A stretch of 32,000 bases of DNA. Source: an uncultured Gammaproteobacteria bacterium (GTDB lineage Bacteria > Patescibacteriota > Microgenomatia > Daviesbacterales > UBA10151). The notes under the pieces are model-generated. The model had not been told where the DNA came from and made no database searches. It was given only the letters and a program-made list of their open reading frames with translations. The stretch covers positions 1-32,000 of the forward strand of contig CAYHYM010000002.1 of NCBI GenBank assembly GCA_964360965.1, written 5' to 3'. This document shows, one piece after another, positions 7,735-24,503 of this stretch. Within the stretch, counting starts at the first letter, position 1. Each line of letters begins with the position of its first letter. Both the position numbers and the translations under genes were made by a program.

Positions 7735-8058
7735 TCACATCCCGGGGATGCCTAAACCGCCCATCATGGGTTTCATCTCTTCAGCTGCTACTTTTTGGGA
7801 TTGTTTTAAAGCCTCATTAACTGCTTCTGTCACTTTTTGCGGATCCACTAGCCCTGAGCTAGCTTGCCCTGAGCCTGTCGAAGGGGTCGAAGGGTCTCCG
7901 GAAATTGACTGCACTTTTTGATCTGCTGTCATCACCACAGTTACCCCCCGATGTTCCACAGTAATTTTGATCATGGCCAATTTTTTTTGCATTTCCATGG
8001 CCTGATTCCGCATTTTTTTTAAATCACCCAACTGCTTTAAATTATCAAAAATTCCCAT
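7735..8058 (-). CDS. ybaB: YbaB/EbfC family nucleoid-associated protein carrying a repeat-derived insertion
   Basis: Size, the N-terminal MQKKLAMIKITVEHRGVTVVMTADQKV and the C-terminal VTEAVNEALKQSQ fit YbaB. Sits in the conserved position next to recR. Confidence 0.85.
   Translation of the reverse strand: MGIFDNLKQLGDLKKMRNQAMEMQKKLAMIKITVEHRGVTVVMTADQKVQSISGDPSTPSTGSGQASSGLVDPQKVTEAVNEALKQSQKVAAEEMKPMMGGLGIPGM
7850..7896. repeat. GC-rich repeat (CCTGAGC/GTCGAAGGG family) inserted in-frame in ybaB
   Basis: CCCTGAGC occurs twice (7852-7859, 7867-7874). GTCGAAGGG is tandemly duplicated (7877-7885, 7886-7894). Translated on the minus strand as GDPSTPSTGSGQASSGL. Confidence 0.8.
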
Positions 8059-8076: not shown

Positions 8077-8805
8077 TTATTGATATTGTTCAATTGCCAA
8101 TTTTTTGGCTTCTTCCAAAATTTTTTCCTCACCGGGCAAAATTAGCCTTTGGGTTCTTTTAAAAGATGTTACCCCTCCATTTTGCACTTTTTGCCAAAAA
8201 TCAATCTGCAACTGATGCTCAACTGGCAATACCCTCTTTTGTAATGTTTCAGGGCTGTCATTATCCAAAATTTCCACCTGATGAGTCATCAAAAGTTCTC
8301 CCTGATCATACTTCTTATTGACCTGATGAATGGTAGCTTCTGTTTGGAAGGGTCTTTTGATTCTTCTTGCAAAATTTAAAACTGCAGCGTGAACCCTTAT
8401 TCCATACATTCCCACTCCCCCAAAATCAGGATAGCCTGGATCCAAGGGGCCTGGATGCTGATTAACAATTCTACCTTCAAACTGCTCAACCACATTTTCC
8501 GGAGTTAAAACCATCCAGCCGTTTTGTGAAACCCAATTAACTTGATACTGGGCAAATTTATCAAGTAGAACCTGGCCATAACTTAAACGAGAAGCTTCCA
8601 TATCCTCCACCCCATCTTTTACCACCTTATATGGTGCTCTGGGCACAATCTCCACCTCCACCATCAATTTTTGAGCTTTTTCTACCACAGCTGCATCTTT
8701 ATTATTGGTTACCACCAACGCCACATCTACCTTCTTAGATTTGATAATGGCCTCAGTAGTGGTGCCTGAACCTGATGCCAAAATGGCCAACCTGATCTTT
8801 TCCAT
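8077..8805 (-). CDS. formyltransferase, PurN (GAR transformylase)-like
   Basis: ILASGSGTT...VVTNN N-terminal fold, NQHPGPL (compare N-x-HPSLLP) and EATIHQV...DQGELL...ETLQKRVLPVEH match the PurN catalytic N/H/D layout. The region between the HP motif and the catalytic Asp looks longer than in PurN as I recall it. Confidence 0.65.
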   Translation of the reverse strand: MEKIRLAILASGSGTTTEAIIKSKKVDVALVVTNNKDAAVVEKAQKLMVEVEIVPRAPYKVVKDGVEDMEASRLSYGQVLLDKFAQYQVNWVSQNGWMVLTPENVVEQFEGRIVNQHPGPLDPGYPDFGGVGMYGIRVHAAVLNFARRIKRPFQTEATIHQVNKKYDQGELLMTHQVEILDNDSPETLQKRVLPVEHQLQIDFWQKVQNGGVTSFKRTQRLILPGEEKILEEAKKLAIEQYQ

Positions 8806-8814
8806 AATAGAATT

Positions 8815-10371
8815 CTAATCTATCAGTTTTCCTTCAAAGATTTCAGAGGCTACTCTAATTACTTCATCATCAGCAGCCACCTCCACATTGGCCACATCTT
8901 CCAATTTTTGAGGCCTGGCGCCCAAAACTGTGGACACCTTAATAGATTTTCCCAAAACATCTGAAAAGACTGATTCCAAAAGATCCCTGGACTTTGGCGC
9001 CTCCAATATTCTTTGATGAAAAGAATAGGGAACTTCCAAAATTACCATACCATCAGAGGCATCACTAACTTTAACTGAACGAAGCAGAGCCTCCAAAGAA
9101 AAATTAAAAGGACGGATGGTTTCTAAAACAAAACTCCATTTTTCTTTAAGCTTTAGGATATCAGGGGAATCAGAATTTGACGGTGGATGATTTATTTTTA
9201 CTTCGTCATTCTGGAGGGATGTACCATCTCGGTACGTCCCGATAGAATCTTCCATAGATGCTATCGGTCGCTTCGCTCCCTCCAGCATGACAGAGGATTC
9301 GTTTTCGCATATTTCCACCACTGCCAGCTCCAGCGGCAGAGCAGGAATTGAGGCAAACTTCATTTTTTCCAAAGCTTGCTGTAAGGTATTCAAAGCGCCA
9401 GCCAAATAGTTGATGCTTAATTTATCTGCCAGATTGTCAAGCAGTTGGTATTGATCTTTTGGATACTCGAGCTCAACCAAACTTTCCCCCAGATCATGTT
9501 TGATAAGCAGGAGTTTTCGCAAGATATTAAGCATCTCCAAATTAAGCTGCCTTGCATCTACTCCCACCTCTAGTTGTCTGGTAATCTCCAATATGGCAGC
9601 TTTAACATCATTTGAGGCTATTTTCTCAACTGTGCTAAATGCCTCTTCAAACCTGACTACTTGTAAAACCCCTACCACTAAAGCTGCCGTAATTTTGCCC
9701 TCCATGCTTGATGCCTGATCTAACAGTTTTACTCCATCTCTAAAACTGCCATCTGAGGCTCTGGCCAGAATTTGTAAGGCCTCATCATCTATATCAATTT
9801 TTTCATCTTTGGCCACTTTTTGTAAAAGCGATAAAAGCTCCGGAACAGTGGCCAGTTTAAAATCCAGCCTTTGCACTCGGGATAAAATTGTGGCCGGTAT
9901 TTTTTCTCCTTGAGTGGTGGCCAAAATAAAAAGGGCGTGAGTAGGGGGTTCTTCCAGAGTTTTTAAAAGGGCATTTAAAGCCTCTTGAGTTAACATATGC
10001 ACCTCATCAATGATGTAAACTTTTCTTTTGGCGCTGCTTGGTAAAAGTTTTACATTTTCCCGCAAGGCCCTGATATCATCTATTCCCCTGTTGGAAGCAG
10101 CATCAATTTCTATCAGGTCCAGATTAGATCCATCTGTAATAGATGAACAAGTAGAACATTTATTACAAGGAACATTCTGCTTTGCAGAACAATTTACCAT
10201 TTTGGCCAAAATTCGGGCTGTTGATGTTTTACCGCTGCCGCGAGGTCCTACCAAAAGATAGGCATGGGAAAGTTTTCCAGTCAAATATGCTGACTTTAGG
10301 TTTTTTTTAACATGATCCTGACCAGCCAGAGCATCAAGAGTTTGCGGGCGGTATTTTAAATAAAGTGTCAT
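8815..10371 (-). CDS. dnaX: DNA polymerase III subunit gamma/tau
   Basis: Walker A GPRGSGKTS, zinc module CNKCSTCSS, Walker B IIDEVHML and sensor segment ILSRVQRL. Its start overlaps the ybeY stop by 4 nt. Confidence 0.92.
   Translation of the reverse strand: MTLYLKYRPQTLDALAGQDHVKKNLKSAYLTGKLSHAYLLVGPRGSGKTSTARILAKMVNCSAKQNVPCNKCSTCSSITDGSNLDLIEIDAASNRGIDDIRALRENVKLLPSSAKRKVYIIDEVHMLTQEALNALLKTLEEPPTHALFILATTQGEKIPATILSRVQRLDFKLATVPELLSLLQKVAKDEKIDIDDEALQILARASDGSFRDGVKLLDQASSMEGKITAALVVGVLQVVRFEEAFSTVEKIASNDVKAAILEITRQLEVGVDARQLNLEMLNILRKLLLIKHDLGESLVELEYPKDQYQLLDNLADKLSINYLAGALNTLQQALEKMKFASIPALPLELAVVEICENESSVMLEGAKRPIASMEDSIGTYRDGTSLQNDEVKINHPPSNSDSPDILKLKEKWSFVLETIRPFNFSLEALLRSVKVSDASDGMVILEVPYSFHQRILEAPKSRDLLESVFSDVLGKSIKVSTVLGARPQKLEDVANVEVAADDEVIRVASEIFEGKLID
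9206..9292. repeat. inverted pair of GTCATKCTGGAG-family elements inserted in-frame in dnaX
   Basis: Termini GTCATTCTGGAGGGA (9206-9220) and TCCCTCCAGCATGAC (9278-9292) are complementary at 14 of 15 positions. Internal hairpins are GTACC-N5-GGTAC (9222-9236) and CGATAG-N15-CTATCG (9241-9267). Each arm resembles the intergenic copy at 24477-24503. Confidence 0.85.
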
Positions 10372-10765: not shown

Positions 10766-10790
10766 GTCATTCCGGACTTGATCCGGAATC
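10766..10790. repeat. palindromic repeat hairpin (GTCATTCCGGA...TCCGGAATC)
   Basis: ATTCCGGA (10769-10776) pairs with TCCGGAAT (10782-10789) around the loop CTTGA. The GTCATTC...GAATC ends are shared with the copies at 23716-23740 and 24477-24503. Confidence 0.8.
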
Positions 10791-10809
10791 TATATAATTA
10801 TTTGTATGG

Positions 10810-10844
10810 ATCCTGAATCAAGTTCAGGATGACACTAGGGTGTC
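10810..10844. repeat. palindromic repeat: 8-bp hairpin followed by a GACAC/GTGTC hairpin
   Basis: ATCCTGAA (10810-10817) pairs with TTCAGGAT (10823-10830) around the loop TCAAG. GACAC-TAGG-GTGTC follows at 10831-10844. TTCAGGATGACACT.GGTGTCA recurs at 12590-12611. Confidence 0.8.
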
Positions 10845-17966: not shown

Positions 17967-19688
17967 TCAGCTTCTATCAAAGAATTCTACTTTTGAGGCA
18001 GGGTCAGGACGTTGATCTAACTTAATACCAGAAAGATAGAGATCAGAGTTAGCAATTAGCTGATTGGCTTCATATGCTAATGCCCGATAGTTGATATGTC
18101 CACCAGGTCTATATCTTAAGTCAGTAAAATAGAGAGCCTGTTTAGGATTACCATGCATATAAAAATCAACCATTTGGCCAAGTGGCATCACGTTGGCTAC
18201 AAAGCTAAAGTCTGCTTTATCTCCATATTCAGTTTGTACTTTATCCATTAAACTATATACTCCCTCATAATACCTCTCCATGTCAGTAGTAAAATCTTCT
18301 GCCTGCTCTTCAAACTGATCAACAGCCACTAAATATAATGGCAAACCAAAGCCTTTACAGAGTACCTGTTCTGCTTTCTGTCTACCCCAGGCTTCACCAT
18401 AAAGCAGTGGCATAGGCATAAATCTACCCCAGGCTCTTTGTCTGTTAAAATCTCTTTGCACTCCTAAATCAGCAAACACTTGTAAGGTTATATCAGTAAC
18501 AGCAGCCATATAGGAAGGCTCTCGGTACTTATCATGACCATTAAAAATAATTTGACTAATGCGACGTTTAGTTTCATCACTTCTGGTGGACAACCAGCCG
18601 TTGACTACCTCAGCTGGAAGAGCTGGCCAGAGAGTTTGTACGTACTGCATAGCTACCCTTTCCCCCAAACTTATTTGACCCGGTAACAAATTGATTACCT
18701 GCTCTTTTCTTTGAGGAAAACTACCATAGGCTTTAGCAACTCTGAGCAAATCTTCTTTACCCCCAATAAATGTTTTTAACTGCCTTAAGTTTTCATTAAC
18801 TGTATTATCTGCTTCGGTATGTCTAATTAAACTGGGTGATTCAGCTTTAAAGATAAGTAATTTTTCAGTCTCTGCATCAGGAGCCAAAAAGGCTTCTAGT
18901 TGATTAGCATATCTCCTGTAAAAGGGCACATGTGAAGCCTGAAGTAGAGAAATTATTCTAGACCAGTCTCTAGAGGAGGTCTCGTAAGAAAAACCAGTGC
19001 CCTGGCCAAACAGCAAAAAGTATCTGGCAGAGTCCAGTACCCGAGAGTTCAGTGCTCCTTTTTGACTGGCATCTGGCTGATAAAATTCTTCATAGGCAGA
19101 AGTTAACTTTTCCCTGTGTTTAGCAAATAACTCTAATGAGAGTCCTCCCAATCCTTGATATTCTTCTTCAATCTCTGGGTTCATTTCATCTATAGGTAAA
19201 TAGTTACTCAGTGGATGAAGTACTGCTCTTCTAAAAGAGGGCTGGTAACGGGTGGATTTTTCCTGACCAGAGATGATGTAACCTTCATGAAACATAGTAA
19301 AAGCTAGGTGCATGGGGGTTAAGTGATGGTCTACCTGAATTCTGGCCATATCTCCTACCGACTTATGTCCATATCCAGCAAACATATCATCAATCTTTTG
19401 ATCAGGATCCACTCCTTTTTCACCCATTTCATGATAAATGTCCCAAGGAGTTCCCGGGGCTCTGGATTGCCTGGCTCCACCCCAAGCTTTATGGGCAGCC
19501 GTTCTTTTTTCAGGATTAGCTAGAGGGGAAGTTACTACAACTCCACTCTGTAGATCTTCCATACAGATCATATCCAATCCTGTCTGATCAGCTGAATACC
19601 TAAACCAGCGATAACCATTATGAGTTAATTCTTTAATTGGTAATAATTCTTGCTGCTCAGACATGTATTCCTCGTATTCCTTTGGCAA
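17967..19688 (-). CDS. ThyX-like flavin-dependent thymidylate synthase homologue, internally duplicated (573 aa)
   Basis: There are two ThyX-like units. Unit 1 has YGHKSVGDMARIQV...MFHEGYIISGQEKSTRY and ...LDSARYFLLFGQGT...SSRDWSRII. Unit 2 has NGHDKY...ITLQVFADLGVQRDFNRQRAW and ...NPKQALYFTDLRYRPGGHINYRALAYEAN. The canonical RHR-x7-S-x-RY signature is split between them: unit 1 keeps SxRY and unit 2 keeps RxR. An alternative ATG exists at 19664. Confidence 0.6.
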   Translation of the reverse strand: MPKEYEEYMSEQQELLPIKELTHNGYRWFRYSADQTGLDMICMEDLQSGVVVTSPLANPEKRTAAHKAWGGARQSRAPGTPWDIYHEMGEKGVDPDQKIDDMFAGYGHKSVGDMARIQVDHHLTPMHLAFTMFHEGYIISGQEKSTRYQPSFRRAVLHPLSNYLPIDEMNPEIEEEYQGLGGLSLELFAKHREKLTSAYEEFYQPDASQKGALNSRVLDSARYFLLFGQGTGFSYETSSRDWSRIISLLQASHVPFYRRYANQLEAFLAPDAETEKLLIFKAESPSLIRHTEADNTVNENLRQLKTFIGGKEDLLRVAKAYGSFPQRKEQVINLLPGQISLGERVAMQYVQTLWPALPAEVVNGWLSTRSDETKRRISQIIFNGHDKYREPSYMAAVTDITLQVFADLGVQRDFNRQRAWGRFMPMPLLYGEAWGRQKAEQVLCKGFGLPLYLVAVDQFEEQAEDFTTDMERYYEGVYSLMDKVQTEYGDKADFSFVANVMPLGQMVDFYMHGNPKQALYFTDLRYRPGGHINYRALAYEANQLIANSDLYLSGIKLDQRPDPASKVEFFDRS

Positions 19689-21639: not shown

Positions 21640-23700
21640 CTAGGTAGACACCTTAGTATTATCCCTACCTTTCGGCTTTGTCCAACTAGCATATTTGCAC
21701 TTGGGCCAGTTTTTACAGCCATAAAAAGTTCTACCTTTGCGGGTTCTTCTGACCACAACCTCTCCACCATCATCAGGACATAAACCTGCTATTTTTTCTT
21801 CCAAAGATTCTGTATATTTACATTCAGGAAATCCGGAACAGGCCAAAAACTTGCCGAATTTGCCTGTCCGGACTATCAGTTCTTTACCACAATCCGGACA
21901 TTTTTTACCTGCATACTCCACAACCAATTTAACTTTCTCGGCAGTTTCAATAATCTCTGCCAATTTTTTGGCAAAAGGAGTATAAAACTCTCTTAAGGTG
22001 GGCACCCATGATCTCTCTCCTCTGGAGATCTCATCCAACTCATCCTCCATTTGGGCGGTGAATTGATAATCCACTATATCGGCAAAATTTTTAACCAGAA
22101 AATCAGTCACAGCAAACCCCAATGCAGTGGGAATAAACCTTCGCAGCTGCCTTTCCACATAAAATCTGTCCACAATTATGGATAAAATTGCAGCATAGGT
22201 AGAAGGCCTGCCAATGCCCAACTCCTCTAATTTTTTAATTAAAGATGCTTCAGTATATCTTGGAGGTGGTTCTGTGAAATGCTGTCCAGGAATGATCTGG
22301 ATCAGATTAAGTGGATCATTTTGTGAAAGCTTTGGTAAAACTTGTTTTTTCTCTTCACCATCTTCCCTTGACTCGCCGGAGCCTTCGGCGGAGGCGGTTT
22401 CTGCCTCTTTGCCATATAATTTTAACCAGCCATCGAACTTAATCACAGAACCAGTTGCTCTTAGCAAGTACACCTCGAAGGAGTCAAAGCCCACCTTCGA
22501 GGTGGAGGCCTTCACATCCACTGTGGTTTGATCCATCACTGCTTCATTCATCTGACAGGCCACAAATCTTTTCCAAATTAGATCATATAGCCTGACATGA
22601 TCCCTGTTCATCCCTGGTAAGCTTCGCAAGGCCTGGCCTTGCGTGCGTACATCAGTCGTCCTTATCGCCTCATGAGCTTCTTGTATATTTTTGGCTTTGG
22701 ATTTGTATAATCTTGGGCTTTTGGGTAAATATTGTCTACCAAACTCTTTACCAATAAATTCTCTGGCAGATGCAATTGCCTGGGACGCAAGATTTACTGA
22801 ATCAGTTCTCATATAAGTGATTAAACCCCGCTCATAGAGATTTTGGGCCAGCATCATGGCACGCCTGGCGCTAAATCCTAGCCTGTTTGAGGCTGTTTGC
22901 TGCAGGGTGGAGGTGGTAAATGGAGGAAAAGGGTAGCGGCGAACTTCTTTTTTGGTAACTTTGGCAATCTGATAATCTGCTTTTTGCAGATTTTTTACAT
23001 GCCCATCAGCTTCATTTTTATTTTTAATGGTTAATTTTTTACCATTTTGTTCTATTAAGATTGCAGTAAAGGAGGCGAAGTCTGAGCCAACCAACCCCAA
23101 TATAGCTTCAATTATCCAGTACTCCTGAGGTTTAAAAGTGGTAACTTCTCTTTCTCTTTCAACCACAAGGCGTAGCGCCACAGACTGCACCCTTCCGGCA
23201 GACAAACCCCTTTTAACTTTTTGCCAAAGAAGTGGAGATAATTTATAACCAACCAATCTATCCAAAACTCTCCTGGCTTGTTGAGCATCAACCAGTTTTA
23301 GGTCAATGCCACGAGGATTCTCGAAGGCTTCTTTAATGGCCTCTGGAGTAATCTCATGGAAGACCACTCTTTTAATGTCTTTGCTGATACTCCGATCCAC
23401 TGACCCACTGACTAACTGGGCTATATGCCAGGCAATGGCCTCACCTTCCCGATCAGGATCTGTGGCTAGCCAAAGTGTTTTGGTTCCTTTAGCAATTTTT
23501 TTTAAGTTATTAACAGTTTTTAATTTGGCTTTGGGAATAATATATCTAGGTTCAAAATTATGTTCCACATCCACTCCCAAATCGCCTTTGGGCAAATCTC
23601 TTACATGCCCCATGGAAGCCTCAATTTGATATTTATCACCTAAAAAGCTCTGGAGGGTGCGCGCCTTAACAGGTGACTCAACTATCACTAAATTCTGCAT
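21640..23700 (-). CDS. topA: DNA topoisomerase I
   Basis: Toprim start LVIVESPVKA, DPDREGEAI, the active-site region LITYMRTDS, and two C-terminal C4 zinc fingers (CPDCG...CSGFPEC and CPDDGG...CKNWPKC). The start at ATG 23700 is preceded by AAGGAG at 7-nt spacing. Confidence 0.93.
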   Translation of the reverse strand: MQNLVIVESPVKARTLQSFLGDKYQIEASMGHVRDLPKGDLGVDVEHNFEPRYIIPKAKLKTVNNLKKIAKGTKTLWLATDPDREGEAIAWHIAQLVSGSVDRSISKDIKRVVFHEITPEAIKEAFENPRGIDLKLVDAQQARRVLDRLVGYKLSPLLWQKVKRGLSAGRVQSVALRLVVEREREVTTFKPQEYWIIEAILGLVGSDFASFTAILIEQNGKKLTIKNKNEADGHVKNLQKADYQIAKVTKKEVRRYPFPPFTTSTLQQTASNRLGFSARRAMMLAQNLYERGLITYMRTDSVNLASQAIASAREFIGKEFGRQYLPKSPRLYKSKAKNIQEAHEAIRTTDVRTQGQALRSLPGMNRDHVRLYDLIWKRFVACQMNEAVMDQTTVDVKASTSKVGFDSFEVYLLRATGSVIKFDGWLKLYGKEAETASAEGSGESREDGEEKKQVLPKLSQNDPLNLIQIIPGQHFTEPPPRYTEASLIKKLEELGIGRPSTYAAILSIIVDRFYVERQLRRFIPTALGFAVTDFLVKNFADIVDYQFTAQMEDELDEISRGERSWVPTLREFYTPFAKKLAEIIETAEKVKLVVEYAGKKCPDCGKELIVRTGKFGKFLACSGFPECKYTESLEEKIAGLCPDDGGEVVVRRTRKGRTFYGCKNWPKCKYASWTKPKGRDNTKVST

Positions 23701-23715
23701 AAAATACTCCTTATT

Positions 23716-23755
23716 GTCATTCTGAGTGTAACGAAGAATCTCTTGCGAATGCAAG
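23716..23755. repeat. GTCATTCTGAG...GAAGAATC family repeat plus a CTTGC/GCAAG hairpin
   Basis: GTCATTCTGAGTGTAACGAAGAATC at 23716-23740 resembles 24477-24503. CTTGC-GAAT-GCAAG lies at 23742-23755. Confidence 0.8.
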
Positions 23756-23778: not shown

Positions 23779-23797
23779 GGGTCGCCGAAGGCGACCC
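23779..23797. repeat. GC-rich perfect hairpin, 8-bp stem and 3-nt loop
   Basis: GGGTCGCC-GAA-GGCGACCC. It is not followed by a T-run on the minus strand, so it is not a canonical intrinsic terminator. Confidence 0.8.
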
Positions 23798-23800
23798 GCA

Positions 23801-23850
23801 GACCCTGAGCACTGAGCTTGTCGAAGTGTCGAATGGGTCAATAGTTCGAC
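23801..23850. repeat. CCTGAGC/CTTGTCGAAG/GTCGAATGGG family repeat (intergenic copy)
   Basis: GACCCTGAGCACTGAGCTTGTCGAAGTGTCGAATGGGTC...TTCGACTACGCTCACT. It shares modules with 227-266, 7850-7896 and 12728-12816. Confidence 0.8.
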
Positions 23851-24476: not shown

Positions 24477-24503
24477 GTCATTCTGGAGCGAAGCAATAGA
24501 ATC
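24477..24503. repeat. GTCATTCTGGAG...ATAGAATC family repeat (intergenic copy)
   Basis: GTCATTCTGGAGCGAAGCAATAGAATC closely matches each arm of the dnaX insertion (9206-9292) and the copy at 23716-23740. Confidence 0.8.

Follow-up and report, generated by a model that had tools for sequence, protein, structure and literature searches.

Repetitive extragenic palindromic (REP) sequences of the CGTC-tagged kind carry an unpaired CGTC tag (often TGTC or CCTC), stems of 8 to 9 bp that begin with an A-T and then a T-A pair, loops of 4 to 5 nt and a CCA-like tail, and have been divided into types CGTC-1 to CGTC-4 (Di Nocera, De Gregorio & Rocco 2013, BMC Genomics 14:522; PMC3733652). They occur mostly as head-to-head dimers, with heterodimers favored and without an associated transposase; some copies are intragenic, many of them in replication or repair genes such as dnaE in Rickettsia conorii (PMC3733652). 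Two of the Rickettsia palindromic elements (RPEs), RPE-6 and RPE-4, are the same as CGTC-1 and CGTC-4, respectively (PMC3733652); RPEs measured ∼150 bp when first described (Ogata et al. 2000, as summarized in PMC10969869). [quoted passage not shown] Here, we describe an 87-nt palindromic element within dnaX, the gene for DNA polymerase III gamma/tau, on contig CAYHYM010000002.1 of a bacterium placed in the Daviesbacterales (positions 1 to 32,000, hereafter the window). The element is very probably a non-autonomous CGTC/TGTC-tagged REP-type repeat housed in the DNA that encodes the DnaX linker.

Anatomy of the dnaX element

The element spans positions 9205-9291, from the first base of GTCATTCTGGAG to the last base of its inverted partner, and is read on the minus strand. 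A first-pass annotation had placed it at 9206-9292, with the right length of 87 nt and coordinates one base too high. Its description of the segment was otherwise borne out. The 15-nt inverted termini (GTCATTCTGGAGGGA/TCCCTCCAGCATGAC) are complementary at 14 positions, and the GC content is 52.9%, versus 40.7% in the rest of dnaX and 39.8% in the window. RNA of the coding strand folds at −43.9 kcal/mol (z = −5.3, with none of 200 shuffles as good), and the two strands folded as single-stranded DNA (ssDNA) give z scores of −6.1 and −6.6. The fold combines an outer stem with the internal hairpins that had been anticipated, namely, a central CGATAG.CATC/GATT.CTATCG hairpin and a GTACC/GGTAC hairpin. 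The segment supplies codons 361 to 389 of dnaX in phase 0, contains no stop, and reads VMLEGAKRPIASMEDSIGTYRDGTSLQND; the tryptic peptides predicted from this region are PIASMEDSIGTYR and DGTSLQNDEVK.

Rather than as a single element with 15-nt inverted termini, the segment is better described as two inverted hairpin units of 35 and 45 nt, placed head-to-head and separated by a 7-nt spacer, because the covariation presented below backs each unit's own hairpin and not a long paired hairpin. The features of the locus are the following:

8815..10371, minus strand: host gene dnaX (DNA polymerase III gamma/tau), 518 amino acids (aa), with Pfam domains DNA_pol3_delta2, ATPase lid, gamma3, and DnaX_C
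9205..9291, minus strand: whole element, head-to-head dimer of TGTC/CGTC-tagged palindromic units, in-frame dnaX codons 361-389
9257..9291, minus strand: unit A, 35 nt, 5′ in the coding direction, GTC-ATGCT-GGAG-GGAGCGAAGCGACC-GAT-AGCAT-C
9250..9256, minus strand: 7-nt spacer TATGGAA between units A and B
9205..9249, plus strand: unit B, 45 nt, inverted with respect to unit A, GTC-ATTCT-GGAG-GGATGTACCATCTCGGTACGTCC-CGAT-AGAAT-C

Both units follow one plan, in which GTC is followed by the 5-bp stem ATNCT, then by GGAG and an inner hairpin, and lastly by CGAT, the stem partner AGN′AT, and a final C. In general form, an unpaired (C/T)GTC tag precedes the basal stem ATNCT...AGN′AT and its closing C, within which a GGAG/CGAT internal loop leads to an inner GC-rich hairpin. 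On the coding strand, unit A reads GTCATGCTGGAGGGAGCGAAGCGACCGATAGCATC and the reverse complement of unit B reads GTCATTCTGGAGGGATGTACCATCTCGGTACGTCCCGATAGAATC. Counting the adjacent bases, the tags are TGTC for unit A (base 9292, minus strand) and CGTC for unit B (9204-9207, plus strand, with base 9204 included). The two units differ from each other in the stem (G/C versus T/A) and in the inner hairpin and thus make up a heterodimer. The core of unit A is GCGAAGC, a motif known to form a very stable DNA mini-hairpin, and unit B contains the GTACC/GGTAC inner hairpin and folds as ssDNA at −10.4 kcal/mol (z = −3.6).

Repeat family and unit-level covariation

A scan of 185,579 species, each represented by one genome, with the pattern GTCATNCTGGAG-N(40-70)-CTCCAGNATGAC returned at least 119 loci, versus ∼2 expected by chance as estimated from database size and pattern information. 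Among the loci listed, several metagenome-assembled genomes (MAGs) are multi-copy; one of Tepidisphaeraceae has 24 loci, E14_maxbin.173 has 15, and one of Curtissbacteria has 9. As labeled, the hosts belong mostly to the candidate phyla radiation (CPR), including Curtiss-, Levy-, Davies-, Roizman-, Gottesman-, Woese-, Falkow-, and Komeilibacteria, WWE3, Saccharibacteria, and Paceibacterota; the other labels are Tepidisphaeraceae, Chloroflexota, Acidobacteriota, Fibrobacter, gut Bacteroidales, Clostridia, many "uncultured Gammaproteobacteria," and two archaeal bins. Several loci with the gammaproteobacterial label (L043, L098, L009, L029, and others) have 36 to 44% GC, carry the same repeats as CPR contigs, and look like CPR themselves, and near-identical elements occur in bins labeled Sodaliphilus and Oscillospiraceae that stem from one project (L045, L081, and L089).

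The architecture is common to all copies found, with unit sizes of 26 to 48 nt across the family. In 107 non-redundant dimers, the variable stem positions N and N′ form Watson-Crick pairs within the unit in 105 and 104 cases (209 of 214 units), whereas the positions that would pair between units in a long dimer hairpin match in only 29; unlike units make up 78 of the 107 dimers. Covariation within, but not between, units indicates that the selected structure is the single-unit hairpin. The long dimer hairpin, considered as an alternative selected structure, is ruled out by the 29/107 between-unit match. The base preceding GTCAT is T in 73% and C in 16% of 246 termini. No target-site duplication rises above chance, since 2-bp matches flank 2 of 123 copies (∼8 expected) and none was found at 5 to 6 bp. 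The fetched loci also contain 42 canonical units of the form TGTC-ATTCCCGC-GAAG-GCGGGAAT-CCA-like (TGTC-stem8-loop), versus 0 in shuffled sequences, and the tails of these 42 are CCA (22), CTC (10), and CTA (8).

The window itself is enriched in such sequences. GTCATKCTGGAG occurs 3 times, versus 0.19 expected, and a looser unit search found 7 units, versus 2.5 expected in Markov-simulated sequences, 1% of which reached 7. Besides those in dnaX, four units of the same plan were located, two of them solo and two forming an inverted pair:

24477..24503, plus strand: solo intergenic unit of the CTGGAG subfamily, as in dnaX, GTCATTCTGGAGCGAAGCAATAGAATC
23716..23740, plus strand: solo unit directly upstream of the likely true topA start, GTCATTCTGAGTGTAACGAAGAATC
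10766..10833, no strand assigned: intergenic (ybeY-yqeY) head-to-head heterodimer of canonical units, same superfamily
10766-10790, plus strand: canonical unit TGTC-ATTCCGGA-CTTGA-TCCGGAAT-CTA
10809-10833, minus strand: canonical unit TGTC-ATCCTGAA-CTTGA-TTCAGGAT-CCA

The first-pass annotation had likened the reverse complement of the right arm of the dnaX element to the two solo copies. This likeness extends across the whole unit at 24477-24503 and is confined to the tag and basal stem at 23716-23740, where the loop differs. The units of the 10766-10833 pair have perfect 8-bp stems and a CTTGA loop, with ssDNA fold z scores of −4.6 and −3.5.

Relation to known repeats

The dnaX element fits the CGTC/TGTC-tagged kind of REP as a head-to-head heterodimer, in a structural variant that is new in form and in host group. 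Its units carry the (C/T)GTC tag (CGTC in B, TGTC in A), their basal stems (ATGCT/AGCAT and ATTCT/AGAAT) begin with A-T and T-A, both tags lie on the outside, and the two units are unlike. The family further resembles CGTC-REPs in having intragenic copies, replication and repair genes among its hosts, and no linked transposase. The tails consist of C plus spacer bases (CTA and CTT), compared with the CCA consensus, and the dimensions of the 10766-10833 pair are exactly those published (8-bp stem, 5-nt CTTGA loop, and CCA/CTA tail). The differences are that CPR/Patescibacteria are not among the five phyla reported and that dnaX and VILE...LQND-type peptides are absent from the published intragenic list (PMC3733652).

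The first-pass annotation had assigned the element to the RPEs. What stands of this reading is the persistence of an in-frame palindromic repeat in an essential gene, together with a multi-copy family and a predicted disordered linker. As with RPEs, the repeat is kept in frame in housekeeping genes and adds a peptide without destroying the protein, and RPE-4 and RPE-6 belong to the same superfamily (PMC3733652), which makes the analogy reasonable. Membership does not hold, however, because the element is set apart by host (CPR instead of Rickettsia), by size (87 nt versus ∼150 bp), and by peptide (VIPAKAGI, CHSRESGNP, and VIPWLDHGI in RPE-4/RPE-6 versus VMLEGAKRPIAS...LQND). It is thus related to RPEs at the superfamily level and is not itself an RPE.

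With REPINs, the element shares two inverted units with a short spacer that can fold into one hairpin, many copies per genome, and no target-site duplication. It differs from them in the tag, which is (C/T)GTC and not GTAG, and no RAYT (REP-associated tyrosine transposase) is flanked by these units in the DNA examined. REPINs are also essentially extragenic, whereas ∼30% of the present copies lie in open reading frames (ORFs).

A MITE derived from an insertion sequence (IS) is a further candidate. The complementarity of the termini (14 of 15 positions), the small size, and the large number of copies are what such an element would display, and MITEs are small non-autonomous repeats able to make in-frame fusions with host genes, as documented (PMC10969869). 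They are, however, defined by terminal inverted repeats, target-site duplications, and IS descent; the present repeats have inverted termini, no duplication (2/123 versus ∼8 expected at 2 bp), and no parent IS that we could find. Moreover, single units occur alone (24477 and 23716), the variable stem position is usually unlike in the two halves, and bases covary within the halves and not between the termini. The window contains no transposase with matching ends, and RAYT/TIRYT queries of 927 kb around the copies disclosed no linked enzyme (DDE transposases were not searched in these loci). We therefore consider descent from an IS very unlikely and retain the REP-type assignment.

Searches for described counterparts were negative. 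No Rfam family matched the whole window at the gathering threshold, and only two chance snoRNA matches appeared at positions 9100-9400 with E values up to 10. Literature text searches with the element sequence and its typical peptides recovered primers and unrelated text only, and those for palindromic elements in CPR recovered nothing relevant.

Copies read in frame inside genes

Between 37 and 40 of ∼125 copies (∼30%) are situated in a reading frame that stays free of stops for 50 codons or more to either side. These copies were picked for being stop-free, so that their stop content is no independent test of stop avoidance, and a few of them, from high-GC genomes, are perhaps spurious. In GatB, GyrB, RecJ, TrmD, RecG (two copies), SecA, and ValRS (seven low-GC examples), NCBIfam equivalog models align on either side of the element, and in GatB, GyrB, RecJ, RecG, and ValRS a single aligned stretch of at least one model spans it. 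The terminus-to-terminus lengths in GatB (71 nt), RecJ (74 nt), RecG (92 and 82 nt), SecA (89 nt), and ValRS (86 nt) are not multiples of 3, and yet the homology downstream of these copies keeps the frame. If they were cut out precisely from terminus to terminus, the frame would be lost, so these copies must be read through. By analogy, this read-through in other genes is the best argument at hand that the dnaX copy, too, would be translated as part of the protein.

The same data bear on the proposal that the segment is removed after transcription or translation, in the manner of an intron or an intein, to leave a mature DnaX without it. The dnaX copy would allow this, given that its length is a multiple of 3 and its ends are sharp, so that precise removal would restore the frame. 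The copies in GatB, RecJ, RecG, SecA, and ValRS, in contrast, are in frame only if read through. In addition, self-splicing introns and inteins are far larger than 87 nt (29 aa), and no Rfam family matches. Removal is accordingly highly improbable.

Several in-frame stretches within one gene were noted in the MAG "bacterium E14_maxbin.173" (L068), where a 1225-codon UvrD/PcrA-like helicase ORF contains at least five in-frame repeat-derived stretches, including a VILERSVSEAIGS...LQHD dimer, CGTC-1-type CHSRAGGNPE and IPAFAGMT units, and a tandem GMTKEKE run.

The DnaX linker and its orthologues

DnaX comprises a folded clamp-loader module up to residue ∼337, a linker at residues 338-399, and a C-terminal domain at residues 400-518. 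In an AlphaFold2 model built from 42 sequences, residues 338-399 have predicted local distance difference test (pLDDT) scores near 30 (<50) and no secondary structure, and the flanking modules score mostly 80 to 90; the linker is thus predicted to be disordered. By Pfam, DNA_pol3_gamma3 (domain III) ends at residue 356 and DnaX_C begins at residue 407, and the linker has no assignment, which agrees with the location between these modules given at first pass.

The best DnaX homologues are 56 to 65% identical, and the named ones bear the label Candidatus Daviesbacteria, Microgenomates, or Patescibacteria, which places the window in a CPR bacterium. When the query was aligned with 120 orthologues, the linker between the VVE(I/M)(C/T) and (L/I)K(E)KW motifs ranged from 21 to 89 residues. 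REP-type peptide signatures (scored as V[IM]L[SEND]..., VIA[SR][SE]..., and ...[QR][NSH]D[DEK]) appear in the linker of 21 of the 121 proteins and elsewhere in 2. The first-pass annotation had suggested testing whether ∼29 codons are missing from relatives. In agreement with its palindromic-repeat reading, 100 of the 121 linkers carry no repeat-type signature; a clean 29-codon gap, however, is not demonstrable, because the linker is hypervariable and the closest orthologue carries the same element. DNA of seven orthologous loci revealed real units at the same place, a few codons after VVE(I/M)(C/T), of differing subtypes (stem types ATGCT, ATCCT, ATTCT, and ATTGC):

L001: ATGCT/ATTCT
L002, L126, and L127: ATCCT/ATTCT
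L123: ATCCT, with a degenerate partner ending CAGAATGAC
L124 and L125: ATTGC

At the level of sequence, this comparison shows a dnaX linker that appears to have been occupied repeatedly by different repeat subtypes. Repeated hits, or a single hit followed by remodeling through gene conversion, might each have produced this recurrence.

In L001, the closest relative (62 to 64% aa identity), the same element is found at an identical place and with the same rare G/C variant. The flanks match those in the window (TCT|GTCATG...ATGAC|GAAGTAAA), and the inner hairpin of unit B differs. The two dnaX genes are 67% identical in nucleotide sequence, with a median of 69% per 39-nt segment. Unit A is the most conserved 39-nt stretch of the gene (38/39, 97%), and the P-loop region reaches 92%. 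Since unit A tops nucleotide conservation in dnaX, the constraint acts on the nucleic acid, not on the protein.

Gamma is made by −1 frameshifting in E. coli and by transcriptional slippage in Thermus, at the equivalent position of the gene. The dnaX hairpin could by the same token be a cis-element of dnaX expression that, through pausing, frameshifting, drop-off, or RNase action, yields a shorter gamma-like product beside tau. The position of the element matches the end of E. coli gamma, directly after domain III; the RNA fold is very stable; repeats recur at the linker in 21 of 121 orthologues; and unit A has the top nucleotide-level conservation of the gene between two orthologues. Nonetheless, we regard this role as unlikely. 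The nearest upstream in-frame slippery heptamer (X XXY YYZ) ends 669 nt before the element, and the sole A/T run of at least 7 is at nt 64 of dnaX, with none near the element. The 100 orthologues devoid of a linker repeat signature, the presence of the same family in intergenic DNA and, in frame, within many unrelated genes, and a covariation that backs the small unit hairpins instead of the long dimer hairpin all argue in the same direction.

At the other extreme, the segment would be an ordinary lineage-specific linker, with palindromy and likeness to intergenic DNA both coincidental. The hypervariable length and sequence of the linker among orthologues (21 to 89 aa) accord with this view, to which we assign a negligible probability in light of the fold (z scores of −5 to −6.6, matched by none of 200 shuffles), the terminus pattern at no fewer than 119 loci versus ∼2 expected, the 97% nucleotide identity of unit A to its orthologue versus the gene-wide median of 69%, and a GC content 13 points above the surroundings. 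A chance origin is effectively refuted.

Proposed origin and mobility

What the data show is the anatomy of the element, its membership in the family, its in-frame status, its place in the linker, the covariation at the level of the unit, and the recurrence at this site in orthologues. The following scenario is proposed for a non-autonomous REP-type repeat. The repeat would have entered, or been built up in, the DNA for the tether between the DnaX clamp-loader core and the C-terminal domain. It may have survived there by adding exactly 29 codons without a stop in the host frame, at a site tolerant of extra flexible residues. It would be transcribed and translated as part of tau and probably has no role of its own in DnaX. 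Its spread was presumably brought about by a trans-acting enzyme that recognizes the folded single-stranded unit, as IS200/IS605- or RAYT-type HUH enzymes do; this kind of mobility is suggested by the covarying unit hairpin, the lack of target duplication, and the analogy with REP/RAYT and IS200/IS605 systems. Gene conversion among copies may also keep their sequences uniform.

None of the 34 window ORFs, which correspond to ordinary housekeeping genes, encodes a transposase. A phmmer search with eight RAYT/TIRYT sequences from the supplement of PMC3733652 against all ORFs of the 927 kb around 125 copies found no linked enzyme, and its one match, in L050, is flanked by a different palindrome, GTCCACCTGSCAGGTGGAC; DDE transposases were not searched in these loci. 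The matching ORF (L050:5083-5772, Candidatus Gottesmanbacteria, JACQHE010000049.1) has 229 codons and encodes a RAYT/TIRYT-like HUH tyrosine transposase (E = 1e-18 to published TIRYTs). It is bordered on both sides by GTCCACCTG(C/G)CAGGTGGAC palindromes, in what resembles an arrangement of the REPtron type within a CPR genome and has no relation to the GTCAT family.

Several points weigh against the REP-type interpretation. The dnaX units lack the 8- to 9-bp stem and 4- to 5-nt loop of CGTC-REPs, owing to an interruption of the stem and to the second, variable inner hairpin that it bears; their Watson-Crick basal stem is 5 bp long. For unit A and the solo units, z scores are ∼0 under standard nearest-neighbor DNA parameters, which probably under-credit sheared G·A pairs and the GCGAAGC mini-hairpin. 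No empty-site allele was found for this exact dnaX insertion, as the nearest orthologue carries the same element, so that the term "insertion" relies on the family to which the repeat belongs and on the lack of the signature in 100 of 121 orthologues. Neither a mobility event nor a transposase was observed, and translation of the dnaX copy is inferred. The host taxa are unverified database labels, some of them probably mis-binned or mislabeled, which makes the spread across phyla uncertain and calls for caution in reading any phylum count. Finally, near-identical termini across phyla could also reflect a host-side function.

In a bolder version, which we think doubtful, TGTC-tagged units would constitute one cross-phylum family selected for the single-unit hairpin, a conserved trans-acting enzyme or host factor would recognize the folded DNA or RNA, and the start of the linker would be a preferred landing or retention site at which the repeat has a useful role. 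If so, this role could be the tuning of tau tether length or the generation of a gamma-like truncated product by hairpin stalling where no frameshift site exists.

Other repeats and gene models in the window

The topA ORF (21640..23754, minus strand) has a mechanically assigned TTG start, from which it reads MHSQEILRYTQNDNKEYF ahead of MQNLVIVESP (window 23701-23754). The "EILRYTQND" within this extension results from reading the repeat unit at 23716-23740 on its reverse strand, and the true topA start is probably the ATG at 23700, leaving the repeat unit in the 5′ leader. Further small palindromes cluster upstream of topA at 23779-23845, including a GGGTCGCCGAAGGCGACCC hairpin and a CTGAGCTTGTCGAAG motif, and together with the unit at 23716 make up a composite patch of repeats.

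A second in-frame repeat insertion lies in ybaB (ORF 7735..8058, minus strand) at 7849-7893 and encodes a 15-aa block, PSTPSTGSGQASSGL. This block is missing from two Daviesbacteria orthologues (85% and 82% identity), which, unlike the case of dnaX, are true empty-site comparators. It overlaps a motif, CCCTGAGCYTGTCGAAGGG, found again at 250-270 and 23812-23832. Elsewhere, CTGAGCTTGTCGAAG is the loop of a GTCATCCT...AGGATC unit (L078, near 2458) and is nested in the unit in the dnaX linker of P0037 (GTCATCCTGAGCGA-CCCTGAGCTTGTCGAAGGG-GAGTCGAAGGATC; L126:1706-1752). The nesting in these two loci means that the two repeat families of the window are related or that one nests in the other.

Synteny with other Daviesbacteria is retained from trigger factor to the YqeY-YbeY-DnaX segment. 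Downstream of dnaX, a formyltransferase gene is found here (window 8077-8805), and SHMT and then FolD precede ybaB in L002, L123, and L127. At 17967-19688 (minus strand), a 573-aa ORF has a weak ThyX (Thy1) match over residues 98-253 only; it is presumably unusually long for ThyX and may hold insertions or a fusion.

Implications

REPs and RPEs inside genes, including replication genes, have already been published, so the gain is incremental. Even so, these repeats inflate or disguise CPR proteins, and three genes of the window are affected, through the DnaX linker, the 15-aa block of YbaB, and the false N-terminal extension of TopA. Spotting them improves gene models and alignments in a group known almost only from metagenomes. 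The assignment of the dnaX element extends the CGTC/TGTC-tagged REP superfamily, very probably, to CPR bacteria, which are known for small genomes, and defines a structurally elaborated subfamily with clear unit-level covariation. One disordered tether of an essential replication protein appears to be occupied again and again by different subtypes, and this sharpens the question posed by a REP class without a known mobilizing enzyme.

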